A DNA stretch of 33,970 bases from a virus: the UHGV virus genome UHGV-0040082; one strand, written 5' to 3'. Below the pieces are notes generated by a model. That model saw only the letters and a program-made list of their open reading frames with translations, was not told the DNA's origin and made no database searches. A program made the translations under genes and the position numbers. Shown here one piece after another: positions 1,402 to 27,915 of this stretch. Within the stretch, counting starts at the first letter, position 1, and each line of letters begins with the position of its first letter.

Positions 1402-1430
1402 TTTATACAAAATGGAGTCGTTATAGTAAA
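1402..1430 (-). promoter_or_regulatory. Candidate sigma70-type promoter for the minus-strand cassette
   Basis: On - strand: TTTACT, 17-nt spacer, TATAAA. Weak -35. Confidence 0.3.
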
Positions 1431-1482
1431 GACAATTTGTATAAAATAGAGATCTAGATCACACTTTTCATGAGGTTAAATC

Positions 1483-3831
1483 ATGGCAACTAGTTTAGGT
1501 ACAATTTACTACGAAGTTGATGCAAAAACTGGTCAACTTCTCGTTGCTCAACGACAGGCAGACCAGGCTTTTGACAGCATCGAGCGTGGCGCAAAACGCG
1601 CTGACCGCCAGGTGAACACGCTTAAGACTTCAATCAAAGCGCTATCCAGGGTTATCCATTTGCTACTTGCTGCGGAGGCTGTACGCCAGTTTATTGACAT
1701 GGCGGAGCAAGCGAAAATGCTTCGCGTAAAAATCAAAATGCTTACTGGTGATACGGAGGCTGCCGGACGTGTTTTCGATGGCCTGAAAGAAATATCAAAA
1801 GAAACCGGGCAAAGCATGAAGGATACTGGCGAACTGTGGCAAGGCCTTGCTATATCGCTAAAAAACACATCCGCTACTGAAGGCCAATTGCTAAACCTGG
1901 TCGGTACGATTCAGAAAATGGGTGCATTAGGCGGAGCGTCAGCGGAACAGATGTCTAACTCTATGCGCCAGTTCCGCCAGTCTATAGACGGCGGCGTGCT
2001 GCGTGCTGAAGAGTTTAACAGTCTGCTTGAAAACACGCCAACCATCGTACAGACAATGGCTCGCCATATGGGGTTGTCAATGGGCCAGTTCCGCGCCGAA
2101 ATGCTGGACGGCAAGATCACGGCTGAAAGGATGGTTAACGCGATTCAGGCGGCTACACAGGAAACAAACGAGAAGTTCGCACAGTTGCCGCGCACATCCG
2201 GCATGGCCTTCAATGAGCTAAAAGTTGAGGTGATGGGACTTGTCGAACAGCTTGACGATCTTTTCGGCATATCTGACGGCGTTGTGTCAGCAATAGACTT
2301 AATCACTGGCGGCGTTGAGGGATTAGGTAAGGGCGCAAAATTCGCCGCAACATGTTTCAATACACTCAAAACCGCTGGTAGCGAGTTCATCGACATGTTT
2401 GACGATGTTGCTGTTAAGGCTGGCGAGGTTGCTGAAGAGATTATCAGGATGGTAACGCCAATCAAGGCGCTAATGGATGGGTACAAATGGATGAAGGAGA
2501 TCATTGACAAACGCAAGGAAGAGCTAAACAGCAACAACGAGAAGAAATTCGGCCCCACCATTGGCAAATTCATGACATTCAAGAATGACATAGAAAAAGC
2601 CACAGCCGCCTATGACGAGTTCATGCAGAAACAGGGTGAGGCTGACGATGGCAAGATCACCGGATTCGATCAGCCAGTTGGTAAGCCCAAAAAAGGCAAA
2701 AAGGGCAAAAATGACAAGAAATCTGAAGCTGATCGGCTTGGTGATGAAGGCATAAAAGTGTCCGACCAGTACAACAAGGACGCCGCCGCCATGCGTAAAG
2801 CGCTGGAGAACGGCAAGGCCATTGATGCTGCGTTCGCTCAGGGCAAAATAACCCTCCTTGAGTACAAGGCCGCGCAGAAAGGGATAGGCAAGGAGCTGAA
2901 GGACGAATTGGCGCAAATCCCTGTTGATGAGCTACGCGACAAATGGGATCACATAGTCAGCCCGATGGATCAGCTTAAGGGAGAAATTGACCCAATCAAG
3001 CAGGCGCAAAATGAATGGGCCGTTCGAAAACAAATGCTGATAGACCTTGGCGCTACAGAGGCGCAACAGAAACAGGCGCTATTGGAATACGAACAACAGA
3101 TCAGAGATCTGAAATGGGAGCAATGGCAGGCGCAAAGCGAAACAAACGGCCTGATTGGTGCTTGCGTTAGTGGCCTGAAAGGTGGAATGGGCAACGCCCT
3201 TACCGGCCTACTAAACGGTACTCAATCGTTAAGCGAGGTTTTCGCCAACCTGGGAAGTAGCATACTTAACACTGTTGGCAACAAACTATCAGAAATTGCC
3301 GCCAACTGGATAGCAGATCAGTTGATGATGGAAACGCAAAGCAAGGCTACCCAGGCAAGTACAACGGCTGGCGCTGTTGCTGCCCAAGGCGAGATTGCGG
3401 CGGCGGCTATCCCGGCGGCGGCGGCAACGGCTGCGTCAACTGGTGGTAGCTGGGCGGCGGCTGGTGCTGCGGCGCTTTCTGCGATCATGTCACTGGCAAC
3501 GTCAATCTTTGGCGGCGGGCGTTATAATGGTGGCTCTGTTAATGGTGGTAGTCTGTATCGCGTAGGGGAACACGGGATTCCTGAGTTATTCCAGACTAGC
3601 AACGGGCGTCAGTATATGATTCCTGGCGAGAATGGTAGGGTAATTCCTGGTCGCGATCTCTTCAGTGGTGGCGGCATCAACATGCCTGTTAACATCACTG
3701 TCCAGACCACAAACGGATTTAGCGACGAAGACAGTCGCAGACTTGAACAGACGATGGAACGCGTCGCAATGAAAATGATGGCAAGGGAATCGCAACGGCC
3801 CGGAGGGATGTTACAACCTCGCAGGAAATAA
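1483..3831 (+). CDS. Tail tape measure protein
   Basis: 782 aa, largely helical/coiled-coil composition, Ala/Gly-rich hydrophobic segment (AAIPAAAATAASTGGSWAAAGAAALSAIMSLA), located upstream of M-L-K-I-J homologs; RBS GAGGT. Confidence 0.85.
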   Translation: MATSLGTIYYEVDAKTGQLLVAQRQADQAFDSIERGAKRADRQVNTLKTSIKALSRVIHLLLAAEAVRQFIDMAEQAKMLRVKIKMLTGDTEAAGRVFDGLKEISKETGQSMKDTGELWQGLAISLKNTSATEGQLLNLVGTIQKMGALGGASAEQMSNSMRQFRQSIDGGVLRAEEFNSLLENTPTIVQTMARHMGLSMGQFRAEMLDGKITAERMVNAIQAATQETNEKFAQLPRTSGMAFNELKVEVMGLVEQLDDLFGISDGVVSAIDLITGGVEGLGKGAKFAATCFNTLKTAGSEFIDMFDDVAVKAGEVAEEIIRMVTPIKALMDGYKWMKEIIDKRKEELNSNNEKKFGPTIGKFMTFKNDIEKATAAYDEFMQKQGEADDGKITGFDQPVGKPKKGKKGKNDKKSEADRLGDEGIKVSDQYNKDAAAMRKALENGKAIDAAFAQGKITLLEYKAAQKGIGKELKDELAQIPVDELRDKWDHIVSPMDQLKGEIDPIKQAQNEWAVRKQMLIDLGATEAQQKQALLEYEQQIRDLKWEQWQAQSETNGLIGACVSGLKGGMGNALTGLLNGTQSLSEVFANLGSSILNTVGNKLSEIAANWIADQLMMETQSKATQASTTAGAVAAQGEIAAAAIPAAAATAASTGGSWAAAGAAALSAIMSLATSIFGGGRYNGGSVNGGSLYRVGEHGIPELFQTSNGRQYMIPGENGRVIPGRDLFSGGGINMPVNITVQTTNGFSDEDSRRLEQTMERVAMKMMARESQRPGGMLQPRRK

Positions 3832-3835
3832 ACAA

Positions 3836-3866
3836 AACCCCGGTACAATGCCGGGGTTATCTTTCG
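3836..3866. terminator. Rho-independent terminator after tape measure gene
   Basis: Hairpin aaccccgg-tacaatg-ccggggtt followed by a T-rich tract. Confidence 0.55.
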
Positions 3867-3975
3867 TATTTATAACCGACCATTCCGCACGATATATCCT
3901 CTTCCGAAAATTACCTGTCAAATATTCCAGTTCCCCCCGCCTGGTGAATTTATCGTCATCCATATTTCACCTCAT

Positions 3976-4500
3976 TTATGTGCCATGATTAACACCATAA
4001 TATTTTTCTTCTAAAAACATCCTGTAAGCTACTGCATCACCGAAATCGTCAAAGTATTTATTGCTTTTTCTTTTTCCGTTCACAGCTATATACACCCTCC
4101 ACTGCTCCCTAGACTTGCACCACGATACACCACGAAAACCGCTAGTATTGTTTGACTTTATTTTCCCACTCCTTACGAAATCAGCACAGTTATCAACCTG
4201 ATAACCTATGTTAAGGTTTTCTATTCTATCATCACCCCTTACGTCGTTAATGTGCCTTATTACATGCTCATCAGGTATCGGGCCGTGATGCATTACCCAT
4301 ATAACTTGATGTCTATAGTAATTTCTCTTTTTATACGTGAATATGTAGTAACCGTTTTTATTCCTGGCGCCCACCGGACCCGGTTTTCTTCTTCCTCCAT
4401 TTTCACATATTAAAGTTTTCCAATATATGTTCCCTTCACTGTATATAAACAAGTCATTCCAGTTTATGCTATTGACCATGTCGTGATTTATTTGTGACAT
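3976..4500 (-). CDS. HNH homing endonuclease with C-terminal AP2-like DNA-binding domain
   Basis: HNH-type motif (HINDVRGDDRIENLN) followed by an AP2-like segment (GFRGVSW...W.V.I..NGK...); AT-rich relative to flanking tail genes; paralog of the ORF at 22125-22631. Confidence 0.8.
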   Translation of the reverse strand: MSQINHDMVNSINWNDLFIYSEGNIYWKTLICENGGRRKPGPVGARNKNGYYIFTYKKRNYYRHQVIWVMHHGPIPDEHVIRHINDVRGDDRIENLNIGYQVDNCADFVRSGKIKSNNTSGFRGVSWCKSREQWRVYIAVNGKRKSNKYFDDFGDAVAYRMFLEEKYYGVNHGT

Positions 4501-4742
4501 CCCTTAACCCCTGATAATTCATTAAATTTATGGTGCTCAACTATTGCCCACACTTTTAGATCCTTGCTGTACACTCGCCAATCAAGGTTGGCACGGAATG
4601 CGTAGCCGTATCCGTCTTTCAGTTTTTTGGGTGCTACGTCTTTCCTCAAGAACGCGTCCAGAAGTTCTTTTGCTTTTTTGACTACATGATCAGGTGCGTT
4701 TTTCTGTGCTTTCAGATTTTTACCAATCGCTACCAATTTCAT
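4488..4742 (-). CDS. Hypothetical protein (84 aa) upstream of and overlapping the HNH gene
   Basis: ORF overlaps the HNH start by 13 nt, suggesting an operon; no domain recognised. Confidence 0.4.
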   Translation of the reverse strand: MKLVAIGKNLKAQKNAPDHVVKKAKELLDAFLRKDVAPKKLKDGYGYAFRANLDWRVYSKDLKVWAIVEHHKFNELSGVKGCHK

Positions 4743-5085
4743 AACCCACCCCGCAATCCATTAGTTGACCACTTTCAGGAAGAAATCACGGTACTCATTT
4801 TCCTTCGCGTTCATCATGAATTGACCGTATTTGAATGCGTCATCAAAGCCTTTGACTATCGCCACCTCCACCTGTTCGAATGCGTTGTTCAGCATTACCA
4901 CTACATAACGCTTCATGTTGGCCTCCTTTGTCGGTACTGCTTTTTCTTCTTGCTTTCTATATACATCTTGTCACGCCATATGTGAAGCCATTTTGTAAAC
5001 TGGTTATAATTCTTGTGATGAATTTCTCATTTTTCGCGTAGGAGCGCGTAAAGATGTATGCAATATGTAACTTATAGGGGGAATC

Positions 5086-5439
5086 ATGCCGGAAGTTTTC
5101 AGATGGACGCCGCAAAGAAGCTACAGCGTGACCAGGGAACCAAACGTATCTGTCATTAAACTTGGTGATGGGTATGAACAACGCCAGGCGAAAGGGATTA
5201 ACACATTACTTGATAGTTACACCCTGGTTTTTAAAGGCAGTAGTGCAGGATGCGGCGATGGTGGGAATGTAGCAATCCAGGCGGAAGCATTCTTGAGGGC
5301 GCGCGGCGCGGTCGAGGCTTTTTACTGGTCGCCGTCGATGGATAACGTGCAGAGGCTTTTTGTTTGTCGTAGCTGGAGTATGACCAAAGACGGGCCTGTG
5401 TATACGCTAAATGCAACATTTGAGCAAGTTATTAATTAG
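5086..5439 (+). CDS. M: Minor tail protein M (lambda gpM-like)
   Basis: 117 aa; recalled lambda gpM pattern matches (FRW.P...., GDGY.QR, C..WS, FEQV.N at the C-terminus); good RBS. Confidence 0.8.
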   Translation: MPEVFRWTPQRSYSVTREPNVSVIKLGDGYEQRQAKGINTLLDSYTLVFKGSSAGCGDGGNVAIQAEAFLRARGAVEAFYWSPSMDNVQRLFVCRSWSMTKDGPVYTLNATFEQVIN

Positions 5440-5449
5440 GGGAGGGGAT

Positions 5450-5632
5450 ATGCCTTATTTTTGTGTAGTGGAGCGCACTGGCGCTTTTACATTATTCGCC
5501 GACTATGAAATTAATGATCTTACTGTCCGGGCTGATAACGGTGAGACGTGGTATCTTCATGATATGGGTGATGGATATATCGGCTGTACGACTTGGGATG
5601 GCAAAGAAGTAGCATTTCTATCCTACGATTAA
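5450..5632 (+). CDS. Hypothetical small protein (about 60 aa) inserted after gene M
   Basis: Strong RBS GGGGAGGGG before ATG at 5450; followed by the hairpin at 5639-5660. Confidence 0.35.
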   Translation: MPYFCVVERTGAFTLFADYEINDLTVRADNGETWYLHDMGDGYIGCTTWDGKEVAFLSYD

Positions 5633-5660
5633 AAAAAACACCCCGCCACGGCGGGGTTTA
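5631..5660 (-). terminator. Rho-independent terminator (strongest on minus strand; bidirectional)
   Basis: Hairpin ccccgcc-acg-gcggggt; on the - strand it is followed by a run of eight T. Ends the minus-strand three-gene cassette. Confidence 0.7.
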
Positions 5661-5733
5661 TAGTGTCGATAGTAGAATGCATAACAATCCAATGATGATA
5701 ATAATCATTTCTAGAACGTAATGTTCGCACATC

Positions 5734-5982
5734 TCATAACGCACCCTTCAAATATGCCAATCCCTTATCGGTGACGAATGAATGGTTAACCTGGTTTTCA
5801 TCCGTCATGATGATGAATAACTTTTCCTGTAGGTATTTCGCTTTCGGGTACAGCGTTAAACAGACCTGGTACAGTATCCCGCGCTCAATCAGCAAATCAA
5901 TAAATTCGTGTTCATGATAACCGACGAGGCGGGCGGCCTGTTTCAACGTGTACACATAATCGCCGTGATTGCGCCGCCCCAT
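5734..5982 (-). CDS. Hypothetical protein, cassette gene 3 (82 aa, possible HTH)
   Basis: Third ORF of the minus-strand cassette; the segment YTLKQAARLVGYHEHEFIDLLIERGIL is HTH-like. No family recognised. Confidence 0.45.
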   Translation of the reverse strand: MGRRNHGDYVYTLKQAARLVGYHEHEFIDLLIERGILYQVCLTLYPKAKYLQEKLFIIMTDENQVNHSFVTDKGLAYLKGAL

Positions 5983-5991
5983 GTTGCCGCC

Positions 5992-6344
5992 TTATTTATC
6001 GAACGCAGACAAATTGTCGATACAGAAATCTTTTGCCGCTTTTTCGTATTCGCGTTTTGCTTGCGGATTGTCTGCCGGGAAACCTTTTGCGTGTATTTCA
6101 CCAGGGCAAGCCTGATCCATAGAGTCGGCAAATTCAACATTGACGTTAAAGTTAATATCTTTCGGGTTCATCTCTTCCACCTTATCCGGCACTTGCACCG
6201 GAATAACATAATAATCACGAGCACCAGACCAACAGCGGAGCAATTCACAACCTTCATTACGCGCTGATTCGAATGTGTCAAATAGTCCTATGCTTTCCCA
6301 CTCACATTTATCAGTCCACACGTCTAATCTGTATTTTTGCATTT
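5992..6344 (-). CDS. Hypothetical protein, cassette gene 2 (117 aa)
   Basis: Start placed at the internal ATG (MQKYRL) that has an AAGG RBS; no domain recognised. Confidence 0.45.
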
Positions 6345-6355
6345 TTGTTAACCTT

Positions 6356-6541
6356 TCATTTGGCAGGTTCGATCCTGTATCCCAAAACGCGGTCATCTTC
6401 AGTAAGTAAAAGCGCGTCAGTCAGTGCCTCGCCTTCGTCTTTATACAGAGCCACAGTCATTTCCCTGCCGCCTGACAGGAATACCGTCAACCTCCACACC
6501 TTATCATCCATATCACACCTCCGCGCCATTTTGTTAACCAT
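6356..6541 (-). CDS. Hypothetical small protein, cassette gene 1 (about 57-61 aa)
   Basis: First ORF downstream of the minus-strand promoter; short leader and no clear SD, so the start (6541 or 6529) is uncertain. Confidence 0.35.
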   Translation of the reverse strand: MVNKMARRCDMDDKVWRLTVFLSGGREMTVALYKDEGEALTDALLLTEDDRVLGYRIEPAK

Positions 6542-6557
6542 GCTTACTTTTGAGTAC

Positions 6558-6586
6558 AATATACATATTGTAAAAATCGCTATCAA
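6558..6586 (-). promoter_or_regulatory. Near-consensus sigma70-type promoter driving the minus-strand cassette
   Basis: On - strand: TTGATA (6586..6581), 17-nt spacer, TATATT (6563..6558); ATG about 16 nt downstream of the -10. Confidence 0.6.
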
Positions 6587-6639
6587 CCGTTTTGGTATGA
6601 TTTAGCGTGACGGCGATCACAAAATGACAAGGTGAAAAA

Positions 6640-7344
6640 ATGCGCAGCATACCTACAGAAATGATTATTGATTCCGTCGATGCCGGAGTCGGCGCGGTAA
6701 TTGATTTGTTTGAATTAGACCTCACGCCCCTGGGTGGCGAGGTTATCCGCTTCCATTCCGGCGCGAATGGTTATTACGGCCCGGTTATCTGGAAGGGAGT
6801 GACTTACAACAGCTACCCAATCGAGGCTACTGGCTTCGAAATGAAAAACGAAGGTGTTTACTCGCGCCCGCAAATGGTAGTAGCCAACATTGGCGGGCTA
6901 ATCACCGGGATGAACAACGATTTTAACGACCTGCGAGGAATGAAGGTTACGCGCCGCCAGGTGGAAGTAAAATACCTGGACGCTGTTAACTTCCCCAACG
7001 GCAATCCAGATGCAGATCCATCTATTGAGGCTGTATCTTTTTACGTCGTTGAGACGATGAGCGAAGAAACAGCCGACCAGGTGCAATATGAACTGTCAAC
7101 GCCAATTGATGCTGACAAGGCGGTTATCCCCGGGCGCACAATTCTCGCTGACGTTTGCCAGTGGCAATATCGCGGCGACGGTTGCAGATACAGTGGCGGC
7201 CCCGTAGCTACTGACAAAGACGAGCTAACCAGTGATCCGAAGCTGGATAAATGCAGCCACCGCCTAAGCGGTTGCCGTTTGCGTTTTCCGCGCCCTAATC
7301 CGTTACCAATTTCCTGTTTCCCTGGATCCAGCAAGGTGGGTTGA
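6640..7344 (+). CDS. L: Minor tail protein L (lambda gpL-like)
   Basis: 234 aa; recalled lambda gpL features present (ELDLT..GGE, VNF.NGN..ADP, cysteine cluster C.W.YRGD.C.YSG...KC...LSGC); RBS AAGGTGA. Confidence 0.85.
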   Translation: MRSIPTEMIIDSVDAGVGAVIDLFELDLTPLGGEVIRFHSGANGYYGPVIWKGVTYNSYPIEATGFEMKNEGVYSRPQMVVANIGGLITGMNNDFNDLRGMKVTRRQVEVKYLDAVNFPNGNPDADPSIEAVSFYVVETMSEETADQVQYELSTPIDADKAVIPGRTILADVCQWQYRGDGCRYSGGPVATDKDELTSDPKLDKCSHRLSGCRLRFPRPNPLPISCFPGSSKVG

Positions 7345-7346
7345 TT

Positions 7347-8078
7347 ATGGCACTTGAAGATAAAATGATTCGCTATGCAGCGGCCCACCCTGACGAGGAA
7401 GTATGCGGGCTGGTGATAGATAACGATTATTTTTACCCGTGTTTAAACGTGTCTGAAACGCCGCACAACAGCTTTAAAATCTCGCCTGACGATTATATCA
7501 AAGCTGACGAATTAGGCGTTATAACAGCCGTTTTCCACTCACATACTAACGATTCATTGGTATTGTCAGCACGGGATCGACAACAGCAGGTTATTTCCGG
7601 CCTACCGTGGTTTTTATGTTCCGGTGGCAGGGTAAGAAAATTCCGCCCGGTAGCGCACCTGTTAGGCCGTAAATTTGAGCACGGGAAAACAGACTGCTAC
7701 TCGCTTTTTCGTGACGCCTATCACCTTTGCGGCGTGGATCTGCCTGACTTTGAGCGCCGCGATGGGTGGTGGCTGCGTGGGGAAAACCTGTACATAAAAA
7801 ACCTGCCATTGAACGGGTTTTTCATGGTTGACGCGCAAAACATTCAGCCCGGTGATGTGATTATCCGCCAGCCGTTTAAAGGCGCTGACCCATGCCACGC
7901 GATGATTTACCTGGGCGATAACACTGTTTTGCATCATGACAATGCCGGACTGTTAAGCCGCCGCGAGCAAATGCGGCCCGCGTATGTTCGACAGACCAAT
8001 TCAATATGGAGATCTGACAAATGCTCAAATTTAGATTTACGGGCAATCTTCGAAGATATTACGGCAAGGTGTGTTTAA
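7347..8078 (+). CDS. K: Tail assembly protein K (JAMM/Mov34 plus NlpC/P60-like)
   Basis: HSHTN (HxH metal motif) in N-terminal half, Cys/His-containing C-terminal half; position between L and I; ATG at 7347 with GGTGG RBS. Overlaps next gene by about 58 nt. Confidence 0.8.
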   Translation: MALEDKMIRYAAAHPDEEVCGLVIDNDYFYPCLNVSETPHNSFKISPDDYIKADELGVITAVFHSHTNDSLVLSARDRQQQVISGLPWFLCSGGRVRKFRPVAHLLGRKFEHGKTDCYSLFRDAYHLCGVDLPDFERRDGWWLRGENLYIKNLPLNGFFMVDAQNIQPGDVIIRQPFKGADPCHAMIYLGDNTVLHHDNAGLLSRREQMRPAYVRQTNSIWRSDKCSNLDLRAIFEDITARCV

Positions 8079-8551: not shown

Positions 8552-8565
8552 CAGGAGAAAAAGCC

Positions 8566-14121: not shown

Positions 14122-14149
14122 CCCCGCTTCGCGCGGGGTTTTCTTTTAG
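14122..14149. terminator. Rho-independent terminator after J (bidirectional)
   Basis: Hairpin ccccgc-ttcgc-gcgggg followed by ttttctttt; A-run on the other side. Confidence 0.7.
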
Positions 14150-14385
14150 TAGTTAGCTACACAGTTAGAAGGGCTACCGATGCGGCGCATGTTGTGATCG
14201 AGTTCATGACACCATTGACCAGTATAAGGCAGTTTTTCAGTGTCATAGACAAGATGACCTTCACCATCATAGACAACATCTTGTGGAATTACTCCGCTAT
14301 TCGGCAGGTTATGCAATGCGGCCTCTTTGTCAACAGCGCAACCAGTAAGAGCTACGGCCGCAGAGAATAAAACCACTTTGAACAT
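14146..14385 (-). CDS. Small lipoprotein (candidate Cor/Llp-type superinfection exclusion protein)
   Basis: 79 aa; N-terminus MFKVVLFSAAVALTGC = signal peptide plus lipobox; small mature part with two Cys; opposite strand between J and the side tail fiber. Confidence 0.55.
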   Translation of the reverse strand: MFKVVLFSAAVALTGCAVDKEAALHNLPNSGVIPQDVVYDGEGHLVYDTEKLPYTGQWCHELDHNMRRIGSPSNCVANY

Positions 14386-14572
14386 GTTTTTTCATTTTTT
14401 AATCCTCGTTCTTGTTAGCTCGTCCGGTTCATCCGGTGTCTTGAATATCCGACAAAACAACATTTCGTATATTGATATAAATCAACAAATACATTTTGTG
14501 TAAGCAGAAAATGCAACACAGATCACAAAATGGTAGAATTATTCCGTTAATTAACAAAATGGAGTCATCGAG

Positions 14573-17608: not shown

Positions 17609-17638
17609 GAGGTGATGTGCGAAGAACATCGCCGCGCG

Positions 17639-17666
17639 AAACGAGGCTAACGCCTCGTTTCTTTTT
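17639..17666 (+). terminator. Rho-independent terminator after the side tail fiber gene
   Basis: 9-bp stem aaacgaggc/gcctcgttt, loop taac, followed by cttttt. Confidence 0.75.
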
Positions 17667-17812
17667 ATGTACCAAATAGTGACCAAATACCCAAAACCAA
17701 AAACAAAAGCACTGTAACATACTGTTTTATAAATTATTATTCACAAAGCTAACCATTCCAAGCATACGGCAGATGGCAGGGCGACCAAGAAGAATTGTTG
17801 TCGTTTTATCCA

Positions 17813-20074: not shown

Positions 20075-20088
20075 AGTTCCAACCCCGT

Positions 20089-20598
20089 TTAACCGTTAAG
20101 TTTTTCAATCTCAAATACTGGTTTATCAGGCAGTAGGCCGTTATCTTTACGGTATTCGTTTAATAAGTTACTAAAATTAAATGCGACAACATTTGAATAA
20201 CCATAAAAACGCGCGTTTCTGAAAAAATATTTACCGTCAAACTTATTAACAGTTAGTAGGTTCTCACTTCCTAACATCCGCAATATTCTGCCGACCTTTC
20301 CTTTGTTTATATTAATATTCAATTCATTCTTAACATCTTCCGCTGAAAAATACCCGCTACTATTTGAAAACAAAGGGATTATATCCCTTATCGCCATTTC
20401 CCTTACTGACTTCAAGCAATATGATAATCTTTTACTATTTAGATCTACTTTTATAATAACGCCATCAGAAACCAAAGCATCCAAAGCGCAAATTATTTCA
20501 CCTTCCGGTCCAGGAATAGATTTAACTATCGTTCCCTCACCTGAAATAACAGCGTCATTTAAAAAATCAATTATTTGTTGCTGGTATGAAGTTTTCAT
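20089..20598 (-). CDS. Hypothetical protein in a strongly AT-rich island (about 169 aa)
   Basis: Start at MKTSYQQ with GAGG RBS; a sampled 60-nt stretch is ~25% GC versus ~50% in the neighbouring helicase gene. Confidence 0.5.
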   Translation of the reverse strand: MKTSYQQQIIDFLNDAVISGEGTIVKSIPGPEGEIICALDALVSDGVIIKVDLNSKRLSYCLKSVREMAIRDIIPLFSNSSGYFSAEDVKNELNININKGKVGRILRMLGSENLLTVNKFDGKYFFRNARFYGYSNVVAFNFSNLLNEYRKDNGLLPDKPVFEIEKLNG

Positions 20599-22090: not shown

Positions 22091-22124
22091 TATGTTATTG
22101 CCTCCGGTTTACAAAATGGAAAAT

Positions 22125-22631
22125 TCAGGGTAAAGAAATACCGTGATTGCTATGAAAGTTATACATTCTTTCAGCTTCTTTTCTTGCTTTTACGGCATCA
22201 TCAAATGAGTCACCGTAATAAACGTATATTGTTTTCTTTTTCCCATCAGACCCCCTTATACCTATTTGCGCGCGCCATTTATTAGTTTTCTTGTTCCATG
22301 TAACGCCAACGCATCCGCTGGTGTTACTTGATGGTATTGTTTTATTTCTGTTGTTCTCCCTCCTTGTAACCATCCTTAAGTTTTCGATTCTATCATCGCC
22401 AGGCACATGATTTATGTGATCTATTTCCATTCCATCAGGGATAGGGCCGTTAAACATTTCCCAAATAATGCGGTGACGCCATGTACAACACACACCATTA
22501 ACGCGGATAGTCCAATATCCGCTATGATGCCTACTTCCAGCAACGTCACCGGCTTTTGTTTTGTTATTTGCGCGGTTACAAGACCAATATAGAACACCGT
22601 CCCTATAGGTAAATAAATCATCCCACATCAT
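22125..22631 (-). CDS. HNH homing endonuclease with AP2-like domain (second copy)
   Basis: EIDHINHVPGDDRIENLR motif followed by GCVGVTW...W.A.I motif; start overlaps the stop of the upstream gene; paralog of the ORF at 3976-4500. Confidence 0.75.
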   Translation of the reverse strand: MMWDDLFTYRDGVLYWSCNRANNKTKAGDVAGSRHHSGYWTIRVNGVCCTWRHRIIWEMFNGPIPDGMEIDHINHVPGDDRIENLRMVTRRENNRNKTIPSSNTSGCVGVTWNKKTNKWRAQIGIRGSDGKKKTIYVYYGDSFDDAVKARKEAERMYNFHSNHGISLP

Positions 22632-23748
22632 GACACACCACCATTTCAGGCCTATATACAAAGCGACCAATTTCGCCATAATCAGGACTGTAAATGATAA
22701 CCGCCGCGCAACGTTGCGATCTCCATCCTCCATTAGTTGAATAAGCGTCTTTGCCCGCTAACGTGCCGTGGTGTTCAACTATGCCTATAGATGATTCTGT
22801 TACTGATTTATGGTGCAAATGTCCGACATGGACGTAAACATATTTCGACTTGCCGAAATCCTCGCGCCAGTCAGCTACGCAAGCAGCCAATAAATTTTCC
22901 GGCTTTTTAATAGTGTGCCCGTGGTGGTAAGCAAGAAATGTTTTACCGTACTGCGTGTGGTGGACGATAGCAGGTGACACATCAACCGTCACGCGCGGTT
23001 CATCTTCGTAAAAAGCCGCCAGCGCCGCACGTAGCCAAATCATGCCTGACTGATCGTGATTGCCTGACAACACCTGGATTTCAACATCCTTATGATTTAA
23101 CAACATTTTACCTACCGCCCGCCGGACAGACCGGATCGCCACATAAACAAGTTTTGCGTAGCGACTATCTTGATCAAGAATGTGCCCGCTTATTGGCGTC
23201 ACCGGGACCATACCGTCAGAATGAAGCAGATCGCCACCGAGGAGCAGTACGGCTTTTTCAGACATCGGAGCAGCGCCAACAGCGTAGTCAAAGAAGTCAT
23301 TCAACACGCGCTCAGCGATCCCAGTGTCGTAGCTCTCGCCGCATTCAGCTTTATGAGCAAGCGCCCCGATATGCAGATCAAACACCGGATAAAGGGCCAG
23401 GCTTTTTTGAAAATCAATTTCAGGCACTGGCACAGCCTCCGCGCGTGGTATTTCATCCGTGAAAGCGTCGCGGGCCGCTTCCATTAACTGTTCCATTTCG
23501 TCGCGGTCACGGGCTGTTTTAATCCAGCGCATGATCACATTGCCATCCTTATCGACGAGCAATGACTCAGCATTGACGCCAAAACCCGGTGCGCGACGCG
23601 TGGATATTAAACCGCGTTTCGCCAGTTTTGCGCCTAGCCGCTCGACGTTGCGTTTTGACATGCCATATTTTTCAGCGATCTGCTTGTACGTTAAACCGTT
23701 GTTATATTCAGCGATCAATTGCTCATCGCTGATTTTTCTTTGTGACAT
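22618..23748 (-). CDS. HTH domain fused to calcineurin-like metallophosphoesterase
   Basis: N-terminal HTH (LTYKQIAEKYGMSKRNVERL); then phosphoesterase motifs in order: DLHIG, GGDLLHSDG, GNHD, YHHGH, GHLHH. Confidence 0.7.
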   Translation of the reverse strand: MSQRKISDEQLIAEYNNGLTYKQIAEKYGMSKRNVERLGAKLAKRGLISTRRAPGFGVNAESLLVDKDGNVIMRWIKTARDRDEMEQLMEAARDAFTDEIPRAEAVPVPEIDFQKSLALYPVFDLHIGALAHKAECGESYDTGIAERVLNDFFDYAVGAAPMSEKAVLLLGGDLLHSDGMVPVTPISGHILDQDSRYAKLVYVAIRSVRRAVGKMLLNHKDVEIQVLSGNHDQSGMIWLRAALAAFYEDEPRVTVDVSPAIVHHTQYGKTFLAYHHGHTIKKPENLLAACVADWREDFGKSKYVYVHVGHLHHKSVTESSIGIVEHHGTLAGKDAYSTNGGWRSQRCAAVIIYSPDYGEIGRFVYRPEMVVCHDVG

Positions 23749-23782
23749 AGTGTCATTTCCTCACGAATAACAAATTGTATAC

Positions 23783-24520
23783 TTAGTTGCAAGTTAAAAG
23801 CTCAGTGATCCATACTTGTCCTTTAGCAGTGAATACAGCCTGCTCATATCCATCGTGAGTTACCCTCATTTCACCGTAGCCCTCATCAATAAACCACTGA
23901 CTGAATACACGGCGGCGACAGCGAAGATCATAAACACCAACCGCCGAAAGTTTTCTGTTTAATTTTACGGCTGACATTCCCAGCGGTTTAGCTACCTCTG
24001 AAGCCGTTCGGTGCATATCGTTTTTGACTATCGCGTCACATACAGCCGCTTTCGGAGCCAGCACTTTATTTTCAAGCGCAAGACGTTCATTTTCTTGCTT
24101 AACTAACAATTTTTGCTCGTATTCATTAGCCCACGCCCGCGCCGCTTCCGCAGGGTTAGAGAAGTCAGGCAAAGCAGGTTTGCAACCGTAACACCCATTT
24201 TCACGCAAAGCCGGAAGAACCTCCTCGCACACCCAATCCTGGAAGCGCTCGGCTGATTCTAATTTTGATCTCATAACAAGACGGTATATATCTGCCTCTC
24301 GAATTATAATTATGCCTTTTGGTCTGAACCCAAAACCTAATTCCGTTGTTTTAACGGAATCAAGTTTAATCAATGACTTACAATGTTTTTTAATGGCCTG
24401 ATGCTCGTCGTTGTACCCCAGCGCACGGGCCACATCAACCGCAACAAAAGCAGGTTTACCGTCATAAATTACAGCAGTGATTTTATTGTCATCAAAATTA
24501 AAACACATCAACTCAGACAT
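23783..24520 (-). CDS. Bro-N / KilA-C-type antirepressor-like protein
   Basis: Start at MSELM with GGAGA RBS; N-terminal Bro-N segment near-identical in places to the ORF at 19107-19667; longer C-terminal domain. Confidence 0.7.
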   Translation of the reverse strand: MSELMCFNFDDNKITAVIYDGKPAFVAVDVARALGYNDEHQAIKKHCKSLIKLDSVKTTELGFGFRPKGIIIIREADIYRLVMRSKLESAERFQDWVCEEVLPALRENGCYGCKPALPDFSNPAEAARAWANEYEQKLLVKQENERLALENKVLAPKAAVCDAIVKNDMHRTASEVAKPLGMSAVKLNRKLSAVGVYDLRCRRRVFSQWFIDEGYGEMRVTHDGYEQAVFTAKGQVWITELLTCN

Positions 24521-24652
24521 TGTAATTTCTCCGTAAAACGCTCTACAACGCAAAAATCCCACCGCGTAACCCGTTTGCACAGGTTGCAGTGTCTTATTGC
24601 GCCAGAGGCGCTATCAGGTGGCTAATTTTCGATTTACAGACTGGTATGTAGG

Positions 24653-24754
24653 TTATGGATTGATTAGCAGGTACAAACCGCCGAACAAAGCGACGTTAAC
24701 AGCGATTGCAGCAGCGATGGCAAAGGCCAGGGCGAAAACGTGTTTACCGTCCAT
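24653..24754 (-). CDS. Possible 33-aa hydrophobic peptide
   Basis: MDGKHVFALAFAIAAAIAVNVALFGGLYLLINP; RBS GAGAGGA; shares a 17-nt leader (CGTTTTAGAGAGGATTT) with the upstream AntA-like gene. Confidence 0.3.
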   Translation of the reverse strand: MDGKHVFALAFAIAAAIAVNVALFGGLYLLINP

Positions 24755-24768
24755 TTTTTAAATCCTCT

Positions 24769-25407
24769 CTAAAACGAATTATTAGAAACGAATTTTCTGT
24801 ATGGCTTAGGTAACGAAGGAGTGTTGCCGCCAAATAACAACCTTATCGCATTAACAGAAAACTCAACATACATAAACGGTTCACCATCAGCATGATAGCC
24901 AACCTGTTGGCGAGCAAGCCCGCGAAGCGCCATAGACGGCGTAACAATCCAGCCATTATCAACCTTTTGAACCATGCCCAGCTTTGCAGCAGCCTTATAA
25001 ACTTCACCAGACTTTCCAGGCAAGATTTTCCCTGGAGTAAGGAATACACCCTCAAGCATGTTGATCAGGCAATCATTTTCCTTGCGTAACTGCGCTGCCT
25101 CTTTCTCTCTTTCGATGAAGTAGTCACGAACCGCGCGCCCCTTAGGTGTGTGCTGGATCATCGCAATGTGTTTTGCTGCCTCAACAGTCAGAAAATATTC
25201 AGATGCTGGGCGGCCTCCATCCAGGTTATGAACATTTTTGTTCAAAACCTCAAAATCCAAAGACTTACGCAACCCGCACGCCTTTATCTGACGCTTTATC
25301 CACATGTGATAAGGAGTTTTAACACCCATTGCCTCATGTAACTGGCGACCGTCAACAGCCTCGCGCGTAACGCCGTCCATATCCTTAACAACAATATCGA
25401 ACTTCAT
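24769..25407 (-). CDS. AntA-domain antirepressor-like protein
   Basis: 212 aa; N-terminal region resembles the AntA/AntB family; RBS GAGAGGA. Confidence 0.5.
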   Translation of the reverse strand: MKFDIVVKDMDGVTREAVDGRQLHEAMGVKTPYHMWIKRQIKACGLRKSLDFEVLNKNVHNLDGGRPASEYFLTVEAAKHIAMIQHTPKGRAVRDYFIEREKEAAQLRKENDCLINMLEGVFLTPGKILPGKSGEVYKAAAKLGMVQKVDNGWIVTPSMALRGLARQQVGYHADGEPFMYVEFSVNAIRLLFGGNTPSLPKPYRKFVSNNSF

Positions 25408-25540
25408 TTCAAAATCCTCTCTAAAACGCTCTCTAACGAGCTAAACCGCTAAAGATATGCAATCGTAGCACCATGCGTGTTTTAGCTCGCTGGTGAGCTT
25501 GTTTTGTGGGTAATTTTTGATTTTTGCTGATCGTGGTTGG

Positions 25541-26587
25541 TCAAAGAGCGCCACATCGTGTATCACGTAGCGTTTTTGGTTTAAGTAGAAAATCCAGTGT
25601 CGCAGTAAAGCCATTGCCGAAGTAAAAATCTGAAGCCGTGTTTTTGAACGTTTCAAAGTAGGCGACAAAGCCGTTGATGCTTTTGTCTTTCAGGTAGTCA
25701 GTGAACGCATAAATCTTGCGTTCAAGATCCCTATCCAGTTCGGCAGGTGGCAACAGGCCATCAAACGTGCTGTTAAATGCCTCCACTACGTCGGCAGCGT
25801 TTGCAGTGGCTGACAGTTTGCGCCATTTTTCAGCATCAGCCAGATACCCATCAAATTTAGTTACCCGGCAAATGTTTATAGGCTTAGGTGTTCCACCACG
25901 GCTACGCCATTGCGTTAAAGCCCACTCAATCACTAATGTGATCTCATCCTCCGTATACGCTTTACGTGTTTTTGTTTCTGTCAGTAGTTCGATGAATGGC
26001 TTCGCATCACGACATTTGCATCCTGCCTTGTCGTTGTAGAAGGCCAGGCAACGCAACGCCGCTTCGTTTACGCCATCATGATTGACATGTTTTTCTTCTG
26101 GGGGGATATAAGGGGGTATATTTTTAATGTTCTCTTTACTGGTTATATATGACTGGTTAGGGTGACTCTGTGTCACTACCCCCGGTGACTCTGTGTCACT
26201 ACCCTGGTGACTCTGTGTCACTACCCCCGGTGACTCTGTGTCACTACCCTGGTGACTCTGTGTCACTACCCCCGGTGTCACAGTGACACTACCATGCAAT
26301 GACGGAAGGACTATTACATAGAAATTACTAGTTTGCTCTTTTCCTCCGATTAAGTATCTTGGTTGTTTAATCAACAACCCTTTTTCACAAAGTGAGTCTA
26401 CAGCCCTCATAGCTGTTCTTTTGCTGATCTCACACTCCTTTGCTATGTGATGGTAAGAAGGGTAACACTCGCCGTTATCATTAGCGTTATCAGCTAACTT
26501 CAACAGCACTAGTTTGTGCATTGGGTCGCCGACCTCAGTATGGAAGACCTCTACCATTAGCCGCATACTCATAAGCATTAACCTCAT
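25541..26587 (-). CDS. Replication initiator (lambda O-like) containing the origin iterons
   Basis: N-terminal winged-helix/HTH segment, internal peptide repeats GVVTQSHQGSDTESP x3 encoded by DNA iterons, gene sits upstream of the DnaB helicase. Exact start uncertain. Confidence 0.65.
   Translation of the reverse strand: MRLMLMSMRLMVEVFHTEVGDPMHKLVLLKLADNANDNGECYPSYHHIAKECEISKRTAMRAVDSLCEKGLLIKQPRYLIGGKEQTSNFYVIVLPSLHGSVTVTPGVVTQSHQGSDTESPGVVTQSHQGSDTESPGVVTQSHPNQSYITSKENIKNIPPYIPPEEKHVNHDGVNEAALRCLAFYNDKAGCKCRDAKPFIELLTETKTRKAYTEDEITLVIEWALTQWRSRGGTPKPINICRVTKFDGYLADAEKWRKLSATANAADVVEAFNSTFDGLLPPAELDRDLERKIYAFTDYLKDKSINGFVAYFETFKNTASDFYFGNGFTATLDFLLKPKTLRDTRCGAL
26161..26293. repeat. Origin-like iteron array: five 22/23-bp direct repeats plus one palindromic variant
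   Basis: ggtgactctgtgtcactaccc(cc/t) repeated five times (26161-26273), then ggtgtcacagtgacactacc; each unit has internal dyad symmetry GTGAC..GTCAC; AT-rich tract at 26100-26160 on the downstream side. Confidence 0.7.
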
Positions 26588-26593
26588 GACGAA

Positions 26594-26839
26594 CTAAAAC
26601 ATTAACTGATAAACACAGAAGAAACCTGGTAGCTGGCTGATTAGGCCGCTTCTTTTCAGTTGATGAAGTGCAGAGATAGTATCGCGTAACGGAATTTCGC
26701 ACATTTCAGCGATTTCTTCCGGCGTTACTTCGCTTTTGCCGTTGCATCCGGCCTTTGTTGCCAGTGCAATTAAGATGAGTTTTTGCGCCGGATCATTGTT
26801 ATTCAGGCGAATATCAAAAGCCTTGCGCACGTAATACAT
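26594..26839 (-). CDS. Small HTH protein at the Cro position
   Basis: 81 aa; first gene of the minus operon, divergent from the repressor; RBS GGAGA; its HTH resembles the N-terminal HTH of the adjacent O-like protein rather than a classical Cro. Confidence 0.5.
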   Translation of the reverse strand: MYYVRKAFDIRLNNNDPAQKLILIALATKAGCNGKSEVTPEEIAEMCEIPLRDTISALHQLKRSGLISQLPGFFCVYQLMF

Positions 26840-27143
26840 ATTCTATCTCCTATGATTAGAGTGAACGCGCGGGCGGGCATCCCATTAGCATTAGATAGCA
26901 GTGACTGACCGCTCAACAGATCCCGCCGTTGCGTGATATTTGTTTTTCGCTTCGCAGCGACACCGGATTTTTAAAGAGCTTAAGGCGTCGGCCTTTTTGT
27001 GCTTTCCCTTATCTTTTTCCTTGCATCATTGCAAGTATGGCTTTACCTTGTCAGCAAGTTTACAGAATGGCGCTAACGGGTCAAGACTTAAAAAACACGT
27101 TTTGTGACTTGCATCAAAATTTTTTAGGTTATAGGGTAGCGAC
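26840..27143. promoter_or_regulatory. Divergent control region between Cro-position gene and repressor gene
   Basis: 304-bp intergenic region between divergent starts; repeated element CTTGCATCA at 27019-27027 and 27109-27117, the first within inverted repeat TTGCA-N4-TGCAA; weak TTGCAT/TATAGG promoter-like pair just before the repressor ATG. Confidence 0.45.
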
Positions 27144-27647
27144 ATGAAAACAAAATGGTATGACTTAGCAAAACAACTCATGCGGGCGCAGGGCATGAGC
27201 CAGGATTCATTGGCTGATCTTATGGGGATAACCAAAGGCGGCCTTTCTCACTGGCTGAACGGTCGCCGTGAGCCGAATCTTGAAGATATTGCGCGTATCA
27301 TGCGGGCGCTTGGGCGTCGGCAATTCACTGTTACTCATGACGGAATGGTCATTGATGATTCTGTTTCTAACACGTTGCTGGGAGCGCCACCGCGTGATTT
27401 AGGCAGTTATCCGGTTGTTGACTGGAAGGATGTAGCAAACAATATGGAAGGCACACACCGATCAACATTGCCACACGTTGCTACTAGCGTTATTTGTTCG
27501 GATGATAGTTATTGGCTGGTTGCTAAAGGTGAATCAATGAACGCACCGCAGGGGTTAAGCATCCCGGCGGGGACTATGATACTCGTTGACCCGCACGCGC
27601 CAGCTATTGACGGAAAACTTGTTATAGCACAACTGGAGGAAGGGTAG
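27144..27647 (+). CDS. CI-like repressor (HTH plus S24 peptidase domain), ended prematurely by in-frame TAG
   Basis: N-terminal HTH (MSQDSLADLMGITKGGLSHWLNGRREP), S24 Ser motif GESM; TAG at 27645-27647 comes before the expected catalytic Lys segment. Confidence 0.75.
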   Translation: MKTKWYDLAKQLMRAQGMSQDSLADLMGITKGGLSHWLNGRREPNLEDIARIMRALGRRQFTVTHDGMVIDDSVSNTLLGAPPRDLGSYPVVDWKDVANNMEGTHRSTLPHVATSVICSDDSYWLVAKGESMNAPQGLSIPAGTMILVDPHAPAIDGKLVIAQLEEG

Positions 27648-27791
27648 ATACCTACGTTTAAGCAGTTGATTATTGATGGAGGCCGAAAACTTTTGCGTTC
27701 GCTTAATCCGCTGTATCCGCCAATCCCTATGAATCCAGAATCAAAAATATTGGGCGTGGTGGTTGATGCGAAGATCGTAAACCTGCCATAA
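27648..27791 (+). other. In-frame continuation of the repressor reading frame after the TAG
   Basis: Same frame translates to IPTFKQLIIDGGRKLLRSLNPLYPPIPMNPESKILGVVVDAKIVNLP, resembling the C-terminus of lambda CI (..FTFKKLI..LQPLNPQYP.I.....VVGKV..), ending at TAA 27789-27791. Confidence 0.7.
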
Positions 27792-27797
27792 ACATTA

Positions 27798-27818
27798 GCC
27801 GCCGGATGGCGGCTTTTC
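27798..27818 (+). terminator. Rho-independent terminator after the repressor frame
   Basis: Hairpin gccgcc-ggat-ggcggc followed by ttttctt. Confidence 0.65.
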
Positions 27819-27915
27819 TTCGCCCAAAAAAACACCAAAACGTAAACAGAAAACGCTATTTATTGTTTAGATATCAATAGCATATAAAATATTTTAAAAA
27901 AGTATACAAAATGGA

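Follow-up and report, generated by a model that had tools for sequence, protein, structure and literature searches.

Why should one nine-base word, ACAAAATGG, recur at eight places along a 33,970-nucleotide stretch of the virus genome UHGV-0040082 (hereafter the window, meaning the whole of that stretch)? A preliminary description of this DNA offered three readings of the word: a binding site for a phage regulator, a translation-initiation context, or junction sequence left by module exchange. We propose that the word, divided as ACA-AAA-TGG, forms the central nine bases of a 13-base-pair (bp) pseudo-palindromic operator, ATACA-N3-TGTAT, and that this operator most likely serves Rep, a repressor of the lambda cI type encoded in the same window. 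The regulator option is thereby supported and made specific, the word being, as far as its sequence can tell, the core of an operator for a cI-type immunity repressor. Treating it as an asymmetric 9-mer proved mistaken, as it is the middle of a pseudo-palindrome whose outer bases had gone unseen.

The copies lie where the preliminary description placed them, on the + strand at 1407, 14525, 14554, 22111, 27150 and 27906 and on the − strand at 4988 and 6526, together with a near-copy, ACAAAATGA, at 6619–6627 and longer identities shared by 1405 and 27904 (TATACAAAATGGA) and by 14551 and 6537 on the − strand (TTAACAAAATGG). Their settings had also been given correctly: upstream of the tape-measure, L and side-fibre genes, abutting a −35 hexamer, in the leader of an antisense cassette, in the gap between HNH and helicase genes, and in the first codons of rep. 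Seven of the eight are intergenic, in a window that is 88.6% coding. Starting from tail genes, the window crosses the genome ends and takes in the early-left operon, then the immunity region, then the early-right operon; it is 85–91% identical to phages of the mEpimmI group (mEp021, mEp010, mEp013, mEp044, mEp515, mEp554 and MagusPhagus). These are Nus-dependent, non-lambdoid temperate coliphages (PMC11893012).

Counted against background, a check that the preliminary description had itself proposed, ACAAAATGG is enriched: eight copies are observed against 0.67 expected from dinucleotide shuffles, none of 100 reaching eight, and against 0.4–0.9 expected under Markov models of orders 1–5. The word had been chosen after it was seen, and as a correction each 9-mer was given its own Markov-3 Poisson p-value and all were ranked. 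The maximum count of any 9-mer was dropped as a look-elsewhere control because low-complexity words, which reach 6–8 copies in simulations, dominate it and leave it uninformative. ACAAAATGG came out as the top-ranked short word of the window, accompanied only by sub-words of a separate 21-mer iteron array, with a Bonferroni-corrected p of 0.009 at Markov order 3 and 0.25 at order 5. It is likewise the top-ranked over-represented short word in four complete mEpimmI relatives, which carry 8–13 copies against 0.6–0.95 expected (Bonferroni p in mEp021 is 1.6e-4 for ACAAAATGG; in MagusPhagus the overlapping TACAAAATG reaches 1e-9). Extra copies in these genomes, such as a pair in the nin/nutR2 intergenic region, fall outside the parts that the window covers, so that the excess in these non-overlapping parts amounts to independent replication. 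The unrelated T1-like Klebsiella phage Sin4, taken as a control, has two copies against about one expected, with no excess. Positions are conserved as well, since each of the four relatives keeps six of the eight sites exactly or with one mismatch. Only this window has an exact copy at 14554, and the copy at 4988 reads ACGAAATGG in two relatives. When 15 non-orthologous families were combined in an information profile, the motif lengthened to GTWTACAAAATGG, with no −35 or −10 signal that kept the same offset in all of them. Literature searches for the motif sequences returned only primers and unrelated matches.

What ties the element to Rep is that the 13-bp dyad travels with this repressor family in otherwise unrelated phages, namely phage L, ENT1, Midgardsormr38, KPP5665-2 and three IMG/VR contigs (L072–L074). 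Rep carries HTH_3 (1.1e-12) and Peptidase_S24 (1.3e-7) domains in Pfam and aligns with lambda cI (3BDN) at E=1.6e-18 over residues 15–208. Rep021 confers immunity against the whole mEpimmI group, and its operators have not been defined in print (PMC11893012). Identity to Rep is 49.5% for the repressor of KPP5665-2 (host Klebsiella), 46% for those of Midgardsormr38 (Erwinia) and ENT1 (Enterobacter), 44% for that of phage L (Salmonella) and 37–38% for the homologues on L072–L074; the outgroup repressors share with Rep an N-terminal arm, MK(T)KW, and a recognition helix, GITKG(G/A)(L/V)(S/G)HW.

Outgroup genomes were scanned whole for dyads with at most one mismatch, phage L being represented by a 2.2-kb record and L072–L074 by the rep-upstream side. 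Midgardsormr38 has three dyads on the OR side, between rep and cro, two on the OL side, beyond rep and 25 bp apart, and one stray elsewhere, with ATACAGATTGTAT and TATACAAAATGT as examples (the record strand reads ATACAATCTGTAT). ENT1 likewise has two OL dyads 25 bp apart and one stray, and its OR side holds two plus a weaker third read by eye; an example is ATACAACTTGTAT, for which the record strand reads ATACAAGTTGTAT. KPP5665-2 has a single OL dyad, none elsewhere, and visible boxes on the OR side, including an exact ATACAAAATGG, that fall below the one-mismatch cut. The phage L record contains three OR dyads at up to two mismatches, two OL dyads (ATACAAAATGTAC) at one mismatch and 30 bp apart, and one two-mismatch match inside gene 24. 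The three-copy arrays between rep and cro are spaced 26–34 bp, and upstream of rep, in the divergent region, L072–L074 show three A(A/G)GTATACA(T/G) boxes. At pL of the outgroups the first T of the −35 is also the final base of the upstream operator, and the last TAT of the downstream operator begins the −10 (ATACAAAACGTAT then TGCGC ... ATACATTTTGTAT then ATT in Midgardsormr38; ATACATTTCGTAT then TGCAT ... ATACGTTTTGTAT then ATT in ENT1), so that a 17-nucleotide spacer places the operator centres 25 bp apart.

The same architecture recurs in the window. Five of its promoters (pR, R1-left, R1-right, R2-left and R3-left) are laid out, base for base, like the outgroup pL/OL, and pL has its downstream operator in the matching register. 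In each complete unit the upstream operator, O2, ends on the first base of the −35, the last three bases of the downstream operator, O1, begin the −10, and the two centres lie 25 bp apart. This model unifies the box found one nucleotide upstream of −35 hexamers, the inverted box abutting −10 hexamers and an inverted pair separated by 16 nucleotides. Single fixed promoter geometries (the box as a −35, upstream of a −35, or before a −10) each fitted a subset only and were set aside. The first dyad tests, with inverted halves of ACAAAAT or TACAAAATGG at gaps of 0–45 bp, found nothing beyond the N16 pair; they missed the true dyad because both half-sites lie inside the 9-mer (ACA...TGG).

Dyads with at most one mismatch number seven in the window against 1.2 expected, 7–11 in the relatives against 1.6–2.1, and two in the T1-like control against one. 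Those of the window all lie between genes or at the edge of one, and the dyad at 31984–31996 is a perfect palindrome. A weight matrix trained on the outgroup operators only and then scanned over the window finds nine sites of at least 10 bits, eight of them non-coding, where 2.0 are expected and the maximum in 100 simulations is seven. The single over-represented centre-to-centre spacing is 25 bp (four pairs against 0.13 expected per distance, with a maximum of three in 100 simulations), and this peak recurs in all four relatives. In total, about 20 operator-like 13-mers occupy about 11 intergenic regions, most at promoters and a few inside operons (Table 1). Within the mEpimmI group the operator prefers an A/T-tract centre and pairs a strong half, (G)TWTACA, with a weaker one, TG(G/T)nn. 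Besides the boxA nut sequences, the box is the sole element common to the leftward and rightward early control regions, which is what cross-immunity demands of an operator. What the sequences themselves show is the anatomy, statistics and conservation of the element, and that it accompanies the repressor family in phages otherwise unrelated.

Footprints among relatives point the same way, operators and promoter hexamers being invariant and spacers variable. Across 44 IMG/VR loci with a Rep at 91–100% identity, neither the block AAAAAGTATACAAAATGGATTGACT nor the −10 of pR changes, whereas the spacer between them does. The pR promoter, named after the mEp021 nomenclature and lying on the 3′ side of rep, is the one that the preliminary description had called pL-like. 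Its O2, in the same register as O_L2 of Midgardsormr38 and ENT1, does not vary among 37 unique relatives, and by conservation it ranks in the top 4% of the 13-nucleotide windows of its own intergenic region. At pL, O1 reads TTACAGAATGGCG on the + strand, one mismatch from the 9-mer, and MagusPhagus has the exact 9-mer there; AAGTTTACAnAATGG is invariant in 30 unique relatives save at motif position 4.

Table 1. Predicted operators, operator-like sites and the repressor gene in the window, with match scores from the matrix trained on outgroup operators
Feature	Position	Strand	Sequence	Followed by	Matrix (bits)	Remarks
R1 left operator	1405..1417		ATACAAAATGGAG	TCGTT (R1-right)	12.3	Holds 9-mer 1407; divergent region between gp63-like and tape-measure genes
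R1 right operator	1430..1442		AGACAATTTGTAT	AAA (R1-right O1)	15.0	Centre 25 bp from left operator
R1-left O2 (R1 right operator read on −)		−	ATACAAATTGTCT	TTACT		
R1-left O1 (R1 left operator read on −)		−	CTCCATTTTGTAT	AAA		
R2-left O1	4961..4973	−	TGACAAGATGTAT	ATA	8.2	Last TAT starts −10 TATATA (4963-4958); 25 bp from O2
R2-left O2	4986..4998	−	TTACAAAATGGCT	TCACA	8.0	Holds 9-mer 4988; last T is first T of −35 TTCACA (4986-4981)
Core-only copy in cassette leader	6524..6536	−	TAACAAAATGGCG		−1.0	Holds 9-mer 6526, about +17 to +25; kept in 5/5 genomes
R3-left O1	6561..6573	−	TTACAATATGTAT	ATT	15.1	Last TAT starts −10 TATATT (6563-6558); −35 TTGATA (6586-6581)
R3-left O2-like half-operator	6586..6598	−	ATACCAAAACGGT	TGATA		Ends on first T of −35 TTGATA
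Near-copy	6617..6629	+	TCACAAAATGACA			13 nt upstream of L start codon; overlaps CRP-like site CGTGACGGCGATCACA (6606-6621)
Strong dyad	14489..14501		ATACATTTTGTGT		15.3	Divergent region between lipoprotein and side-tail-fibre genes; one dyad mismatch
Core-only copy	14523..14535	+	TCACAAAATGGTA		−1.8	Holds 9-mer 14525; 5/5 genomes; 34 bp from dyad 14489-14501
Core-only copy	14552..14564	+	TAACAAAATGGAG		2.5	Holds 9-mer 14554; all four relatives have ACATAATGG
Copy between HNH and helicase genes (both −)	22109..22121	+	TTACAAAATGGAA		7.8	Holds 9-mer 22111; 21 nt upstream of helicase start
Dyad between exonuclease-like gene and orf265	23768..23780		TAACAAATTGTAT		8.7	Two mismatches
Dyad at start of first leftward gene (81-aa winged-helix protein)	26834..26846		ATACATATTCTAT		12.5	One mismatch
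pL O1	27060..27072	−	CGCCATTCTGTAA	ACT		−35 TTGACC 27084-27079; −10 TAAACT 27062-27057, begun by last TAA
Middle operator-like site of pL/rep switch	27095..27107		ACACGTTTTGTGA		7.2	Conserved but for one position
rep	27144..27790	+				cI-type repressor, presumed binder of the dyads
Copy in rep codons 3-5 (ACA AAA TGG, T K W)	27148..27160	+	AAACAAAATGGTA		−0.7	Holds 9-mer 27150
pR O2	27904..27916	+	ATACAAAATGGAT	TGACT	15.2	Holds 9-mer 27906; last T is first T of −35 TTGACT (27916-27921)
pR O1	27929..27941	+	TTACGGGGCGTAT	ATT		Last TAT starts −10 TATATT (27939-27944)
Dyad after N-like gp17 gene	28583..28595	+	ATACAAAATGTAA		15.1	23 nt upstream of next start codon; one mismatch; four genomes
Perfect palindromic operator, gap between orf206 and orf92	31984..31996		ATACATTATGTAT		19.0	Zero mismatches
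Partner of the 31984 palindrome	32008-32020		ATCCGTTTTGTAA		10.6	Centres 24 bp apart

Besides the early promoters flanking rep, complete O2/−35/O1/−10 units stand at the promoters of three antisense cassettes in the tail-gene cluster, and further single or clustered operators occupy most promoter-type intergenic regions. The first of the three cassettes is a gp63-like gene, and in its control region, R1, two operators serve two divergent promoters. The left one doubles as O2 of R1-right (−35 GTCGTT at 1417–1422, −10 TATAAA at 1440–1445) and O1 of R1-left (−10 TATAAA, − strand, 1407–1402), while the right one is also O2 of R1-left (−35 TTTACT, − strand, 1430–1425). The core of the left operator is kept in five of five genomes, and three relatives have a perfect dyad there, ATACAAAATGTAT. 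MagusPhagus and 18 IMG/VR contigs carry a perfect inverted pair in this region, TATACAAAATGG-N16-CCATTTTGTATA. A role of such pairs as RNA hairpins or terminators was considered and rejected: the fold is good only when both arms are perfect (z=−4.9 in MagusPhagus) and weak in the window (z=−1.4 and −2.95), and no Rfam matches were found for them.

R2-left drives an antisense cassette (3976–4916, −) between the tape-measure and minor-tail genes that comprises a 51-residue gene, whose product is possibly an antitoxin, a ParE-like toxin (4488–4742) and an HNH_3 plus AP2 endonuclease (3976–4500). The ATACATCTTGT of its O1 is invariant in five genomes, with a variable spacer. R3-left drives a cassette (5734–6511, −) encoding 51-, 117- and 82-residue proteins, the last ANT/KilAC antirepressor-like; compared as paralogues, the two cassette-first 51-residue genes have no similarity. 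Its promoter (TTGATA-17-TATATT, 6586–6558) is the best − strand sigma-70 match in the tail region (10/12), and its −10 lies within the palindrome ACAATATACATATTGT (6556–6571). We assign the half-operator at 6586..6598 to R3-left as O2 only tentatively, as its register matches the other O2 sites and its right half is poor. The core-only copy at 6524..6536, 37 bp from the strong operator at 6561–6573, is possibly a weak third operator of R3; it overlaps the −35 of a predicted rightward promoter for gene L (TTGTTA-18-TACAAT, 6531–6560).

Elsewhere the strength of individual sites varies. At the strong dyad at 14489..14501, relatives carry a perfect ATACATTTTGTAT. The TGGAG of the nearby 14552..14564 copy doubles as the Shine-Dalgarno sequence of the side-tail-fibre gene (ATG 14573), and this copy is probably weak or incidental as an operator. 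The site at 22111 is kept in relatives with or without the HNH gene, and mEp010 has TTACAAAATGTAT there, one dyad mismatch away. The copy within rep may be a weak OR3-like site or a coding coincidence, the latter because outgroup genes encoding MKTKW use ACT or ACG for threonine and so lack the 9-mer. Judged by the outgroup matrix, then, four of the exact 9-mers look like good operator matches (7.8–15.2 bits), three (6526, 14525 and 14554) are core-only copies, each 29–37 bp from a strong operator or another copy, and the one at 27150 may be a coding coincidence.

Two rival explanations invoke a different binder. One takes the box as an intrinsic promoter element read by host RNA polymerase with no phage protein involved, a UP-like proximal alpha-CTD subsite in one orientation and a spacer or extended −10 element when inverted. 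The proximal UP subsite consensus, AAAAAARNR, has its A-tract where the AAA of the motif falls; the 9-mer lies at −45 to −37 of four or five promoters, its AAA at −43 to −41, and inverted copies abut −10-like hexamers at several. A UP subsite is not a dyad, however, whereas this element is, and the invariance of C2, G8 and G9 in 15 families together with the extended GTWT prefix exceeds what an A/T-rich UP element needs. Several copies moreover have no promoter in register, lying in leaders or in gaps between genes of the same direction; the TGn of an extended −10 fits in no register; and the outgroup three-copy arrays between rep and cro form a classic operator pattern that tracks the repressor family. 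We regard a purely polymerase-read element as improbable. Hardly better placed is binding by another protein, either the 81-residue winged-helix protein in the Cro position or host Fis or CRP, which we also consider unlikely. Cro shares the repressor's operators in lambda-type switches, so a second binder is to be expected, and the 81-residue protein has weak Crp-like/Rrf2 winged-helix matches; but PHROG matches group it with replication-initiator N-terminal domains, and outgroups with an ordinary XRE-type cro carry the same OR and OL dyads without it, which leaves the repressor as the common denominator. As to host proteins, CRP-like palindromes (TGTGATC...GATCACA) adjoin several copies and yet are not enriched overall (20 against 15.3 expected), and GTWTACAAAATG fits most of the loose Fis pattern, GNNYRNNWNNYR, whose 3′ C is nevertheless missing in 14 of 15 families. 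By-eye comparison with consensus sequences for alternative sigma factors, IHF, Fis, OmpR, PhoP, CpxR and boxA gave no good fit.

The two remaining options of the preliminary description fare worse still. It had noted that the ATG embedded in the word usually opens a mini-open reading frame (ORF), and its peptide strings are correct: seven of eight such ORFs have at most six codons, against 27.5% of intergenic ATGs (P=7e-4). A few near-copies even coincide with the true starts of genes: in relatives AAAATGG opens the gp57 homologue, and in the window GCAAAATGG does so at 32053. A translational role, whether as tiny regulatory ORFs or as a favoured start context, is nonetheless not supported and seems to us very improbable. 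All eight ATGs lack a Shine-Dalgarno sequence at −16 to −5, two of the mini-ORF stops are simply the TGA of an adjoining −35 hexamer (TTGACT and ATGACT), orientation to local genes is mixed (the copy at 22111 is antisense), and the conserved unit runs 4–5 bases further upstream as a dyad centred on AAA, not on the ATG. Recombination linkers at module boundaries are rejected; to them, as to a chance excess, we give equally little credence. Two sites (22111 and 14491/14525) do lie within 50 nucleotides of homology breakpoints between relatives, and the window taken alone yields the order-5 Markov value of 0.25 given above; but breakpoint proximity is that of random intergenic positions (three of eight sites against 2.7 expected, P=0.55), and the flanks show no paralogy, about 12/40 bases being identical between separate copies where random intergenic pairs give 10.3 (no long paralogous repeats were found around the copies). 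Enrichment also replicates in non-overlapping parts of the relatives, with Bonferroni p of 1e-4 to 1e-9 in complete genomes.

Several observations weigh against Rep operators as a full account of the word. Four of the eight exact 9-mers (6526, 14525, 14554 and 27150) score at most 2.5 bits with the outgroup matrix because their outer bases deviate; the outgroup consensus thus explains the 9-mer excess only in part, and several copies may be weak or incidental. The model has no explanation for the group-specific preference for an AAA centre and for TGG over TGT in one half. At pR, O1 is a weaker match (7/10 dyad positions), yet it stands in the exact outgroup O_L1 register, and in the pL region, itself highly conserved, the copies do not exceed their surroundings in conservation. 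A few residues distinguish the recognition helices among the outgroup repressors, which makes identical specificity an assumption. Finally, there is no evident reason for a prophage repressor to silence moron-like cassettes such as a toxin-antitoxin pair or an antirepressor-like gene.

We propose that Rep dimers bind the O2/O1 pairs, with centres at about −41 and −16. Two dimers, probably cooperating as at lambda OL1/OL2, would cover the whole recognition region of RNA polymerase and shut the promoter. We infer Rep binding, cooperativity and repression, with lambda OL1/OL2 as the analogy. A lytic-switch protein competing with Rep may bind the same operator, and the weak core-only copies beside strong ones (6526, 14525 and 14554) could be auxiliary low-affinity operators or partly incidental. 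On this model a lysogen would have numerous independent transcription units silenced by Rep itself. Near-perfect dyads more than 1.5 kb from rep number 4–9 per mEpimmI genome, against 0–1 in the outgroups. It is conceivable, though we hold it doubtful, that Rep of the mEpimmI group is a genome-wide silencer whose oligomers repress, act as roadblocks and perhaps loop among about ten loci, the antisense cassettes then being early lytic genes and not lysogenic-conversion morons.

Other features of the immunity region and its surroundings deserve record. In the window, rep is interrupted by an amber codon, Q168* (TAG at 27645–27647; LEEG*IPTF against LEEGQIPTF in mEp010), which truncates the S24 domain. 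The interval from the side-tail-fibre gene to orf220 (17609–17812) lacks integrase and excisionase, whereas in relatives it is occupied by int, of about 1.2 kb, together with a small HTH gene; a tblastn search of the window with the mEp010 integrase gave no match. The amber codon and the missing integrase together suggest a clear-plaque or virulent derivative, or growth on a suppressor host. The start of rep (27129–27146) has no Shine-Dalgarno sequence and follows a −10-like TATAGG by 8 nucleotides (in a distant outgroup, TATAAT, 6 nucleotides, ATG), an arrangement that suggests a leaderless rep mRNA like that of lambda cI from PRM. In the Cro position, the first gene of the leftward operon (26594–26839, −) encodes the 81-residue winged-helix protein and not an XRE-type cro; it resembles a replication-initiator N-terminal domain (PHROG 4617, 1e-9), with weak Crp-like/Rrf2 winged-helix HTH matches. 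No obvious Cro was found, and no cro-like XRE gene faces rep.

Downstream of pR are boxA-like sequences, GCACTTTAAAAATCAGG and GCTCATTAAAAATCTGG (27987–28003 and 28200–28245), the second followed by a boxB-like hairpin, GCCGC-TGGAAGT-GCGGC; an inverted boxA-like copy lies downstream of pL (− strand, 26963–26979), and these sites fit the published nutR1 and nutL positions. In the relatives, nutR2 is directly preceded by an operator-bearing promoter (CCATTTTG then TATACT). Just downstream of pL, the palindromes CTTGCATCATTGCAAG (27020–27035) and CTTGTCAGCAAG (27047–27058) overlap a second leftward promoter candidate (CTGACA-18-AATGAT) and may be sites for a second regulator. Five tandem 21–23-bp iterons (GGTGACTCTGTGTCACTACCC) at 26162–26275, inside the O-like replication gene (25541–26587, −), are almost certainly the replication origin. 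CRP-type palindromes (TGTGA-N6-TCACA, one mismatch) adjoin several operators (5014–5029, 6606–6621, 28139–28154, and about 20095–20111 in mEp021) and lie at about −61 and −71 of the R1-left (in relatives) and R2-left promoters; as a co-motif, CRP-like sites are not enriched (P ~0.2). A perfect FNR-type box, TTGAT-ATAA-ATCAA, at 14472–14485, upstream of the antisense lipoprotein gene (14146–14385), is a hint that this gut phage may place a probable exclusion gene under anaerobic control. A near-perfect dyad (ATACA-AAC/AGC-TGTAT) is conserved inside the portal gene of relatives (mEp021 29104, mEp010 30382, mEp554 29652, and MagusPhagus 21382, counted on the reverse complement of the record), outside the region that the window covers; it may function as an operator within the gene, or the coding sequence may produce it by coincidence. 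A 40-nucleotide stretch upstream of the minor-tail gene M (5023–5062) is 87.5% identical to a portal-upstream stretch in all four relatives (for example mEp021 28889–28927).

Our analysis offers a testable consensus for the Rep021 operator, ATACA-N3-TGTAT in general form and GTWTACAAAATGG within the mEpimmI group, where published work on these common human-gut coliphages gives no DNA targets. No fewer than five or six promoters are predicted to be under Rep control, including three within the tail-gene cluster, and with such promoters the antisense moron-like cassettes there would have to be read as repressor-controlled early genes and not as prophage-expressed. The immunity specificity of the non-lambdoid mEpimmI group is tied to that of the P22-like phage L and of several Klebsiella, Enterobacter and Erwinia prophages. 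What is new is the genome-wide scatter of a cI-type operator, the element itself being, to judge by its sequence, of an ordinary kind. It exemplifies for a cI-type operator a layout so far linked to unrelated repressors (P1 C1, L5 gp71).

The nearest counterparts are the OL and OR operators of lambdoid cI/c2 repressors (lambda, 434, P22 and, closest, phage L). These share with the mEpimmI system the HTH plus S24 repressor architecture, short dyads with a consensus half and a weaker half, a 24–26-bp operator spacing that overlaps the −35 and −10 of early promoters, and two- to three-copy arrays flanking the repressor gene; in the window, copies lie on each side of rep over the early promoters (27904–27916 and 27929–27941 at pR; 27060–27072, 27095–27107 and 27148–27160 at pL/rep). 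In phage L, whose c2 is 44% identical to Rep, the same ATACA-N3-TGTAT dyads occupy OR and OL. The lambda-type phages, and ENT1, Midgardsormr38 and KPP5665-2 when scanned whole, confine their operators to the two rep-flanking sites; mEpimmI genomes instead carry 7–11 near-perfect dyads each (about two expected) and many weaker ones in about ten intergenic regions, including the late tail cluster, and their immunity region has no cro-like XRE gene facing rep. The UP-element proximal subsite (−46 to −38) is alike in its A-tract directly upstream of the −35 at four or five promoters, whereas the box is sequence-specific and dyad-symmetric, also lies over −10 regions, in leaders and between genes, and co-varies with the repressor family.

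In distribution the closer parallels are scattered-operator systems. The operators of P1 C1 are asymmetric, about 17 bp long and present at many operons; phiC31 has conserved inverted repeats, and N15 has its CB repressor. In all three, one prophage repressor controls many scattered promoters directly, with no two-promoter cascade, a logic shared with the arrangement proposed here, although the repressors and operators are unrelated and those of P1 asymmetric. To our knowledge, none of P1, phiC31 and N15 is a Nus/N/Q-dependent siphovirus with lambda-like antitermination as in the mEpimmI group. The stoperators of cluster A mycobacteriophages are asymmetric sites, oriented with transcription, for a monomeric two-domain repressor (L5 gp71; PMC9283540). 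The mEpimmI dyads may share with them a genome-wide placement for one immunity repressor, mostly in short intergenic gaps; in the window most sites sit at promoters and only a few inside transcription units, where they could block elongation (6526, 22111 and 28583). Unlike stoperators, the mEpimmI element is a pseudo-dyad suited to a dimerising cI/S24 repressor, has fewer sites, its best copies are promoter-operator units and not roadblocks, and its orientation is not uniform (within unidirectional operons 22111 is antisense, 28585 sense, and the nin-region pair of the relatives has both). Should Rep indeed silence genome-wide, a stoperator- or P1-like design would have evolved independently in a Nus/N/Q-dependent coliphage.

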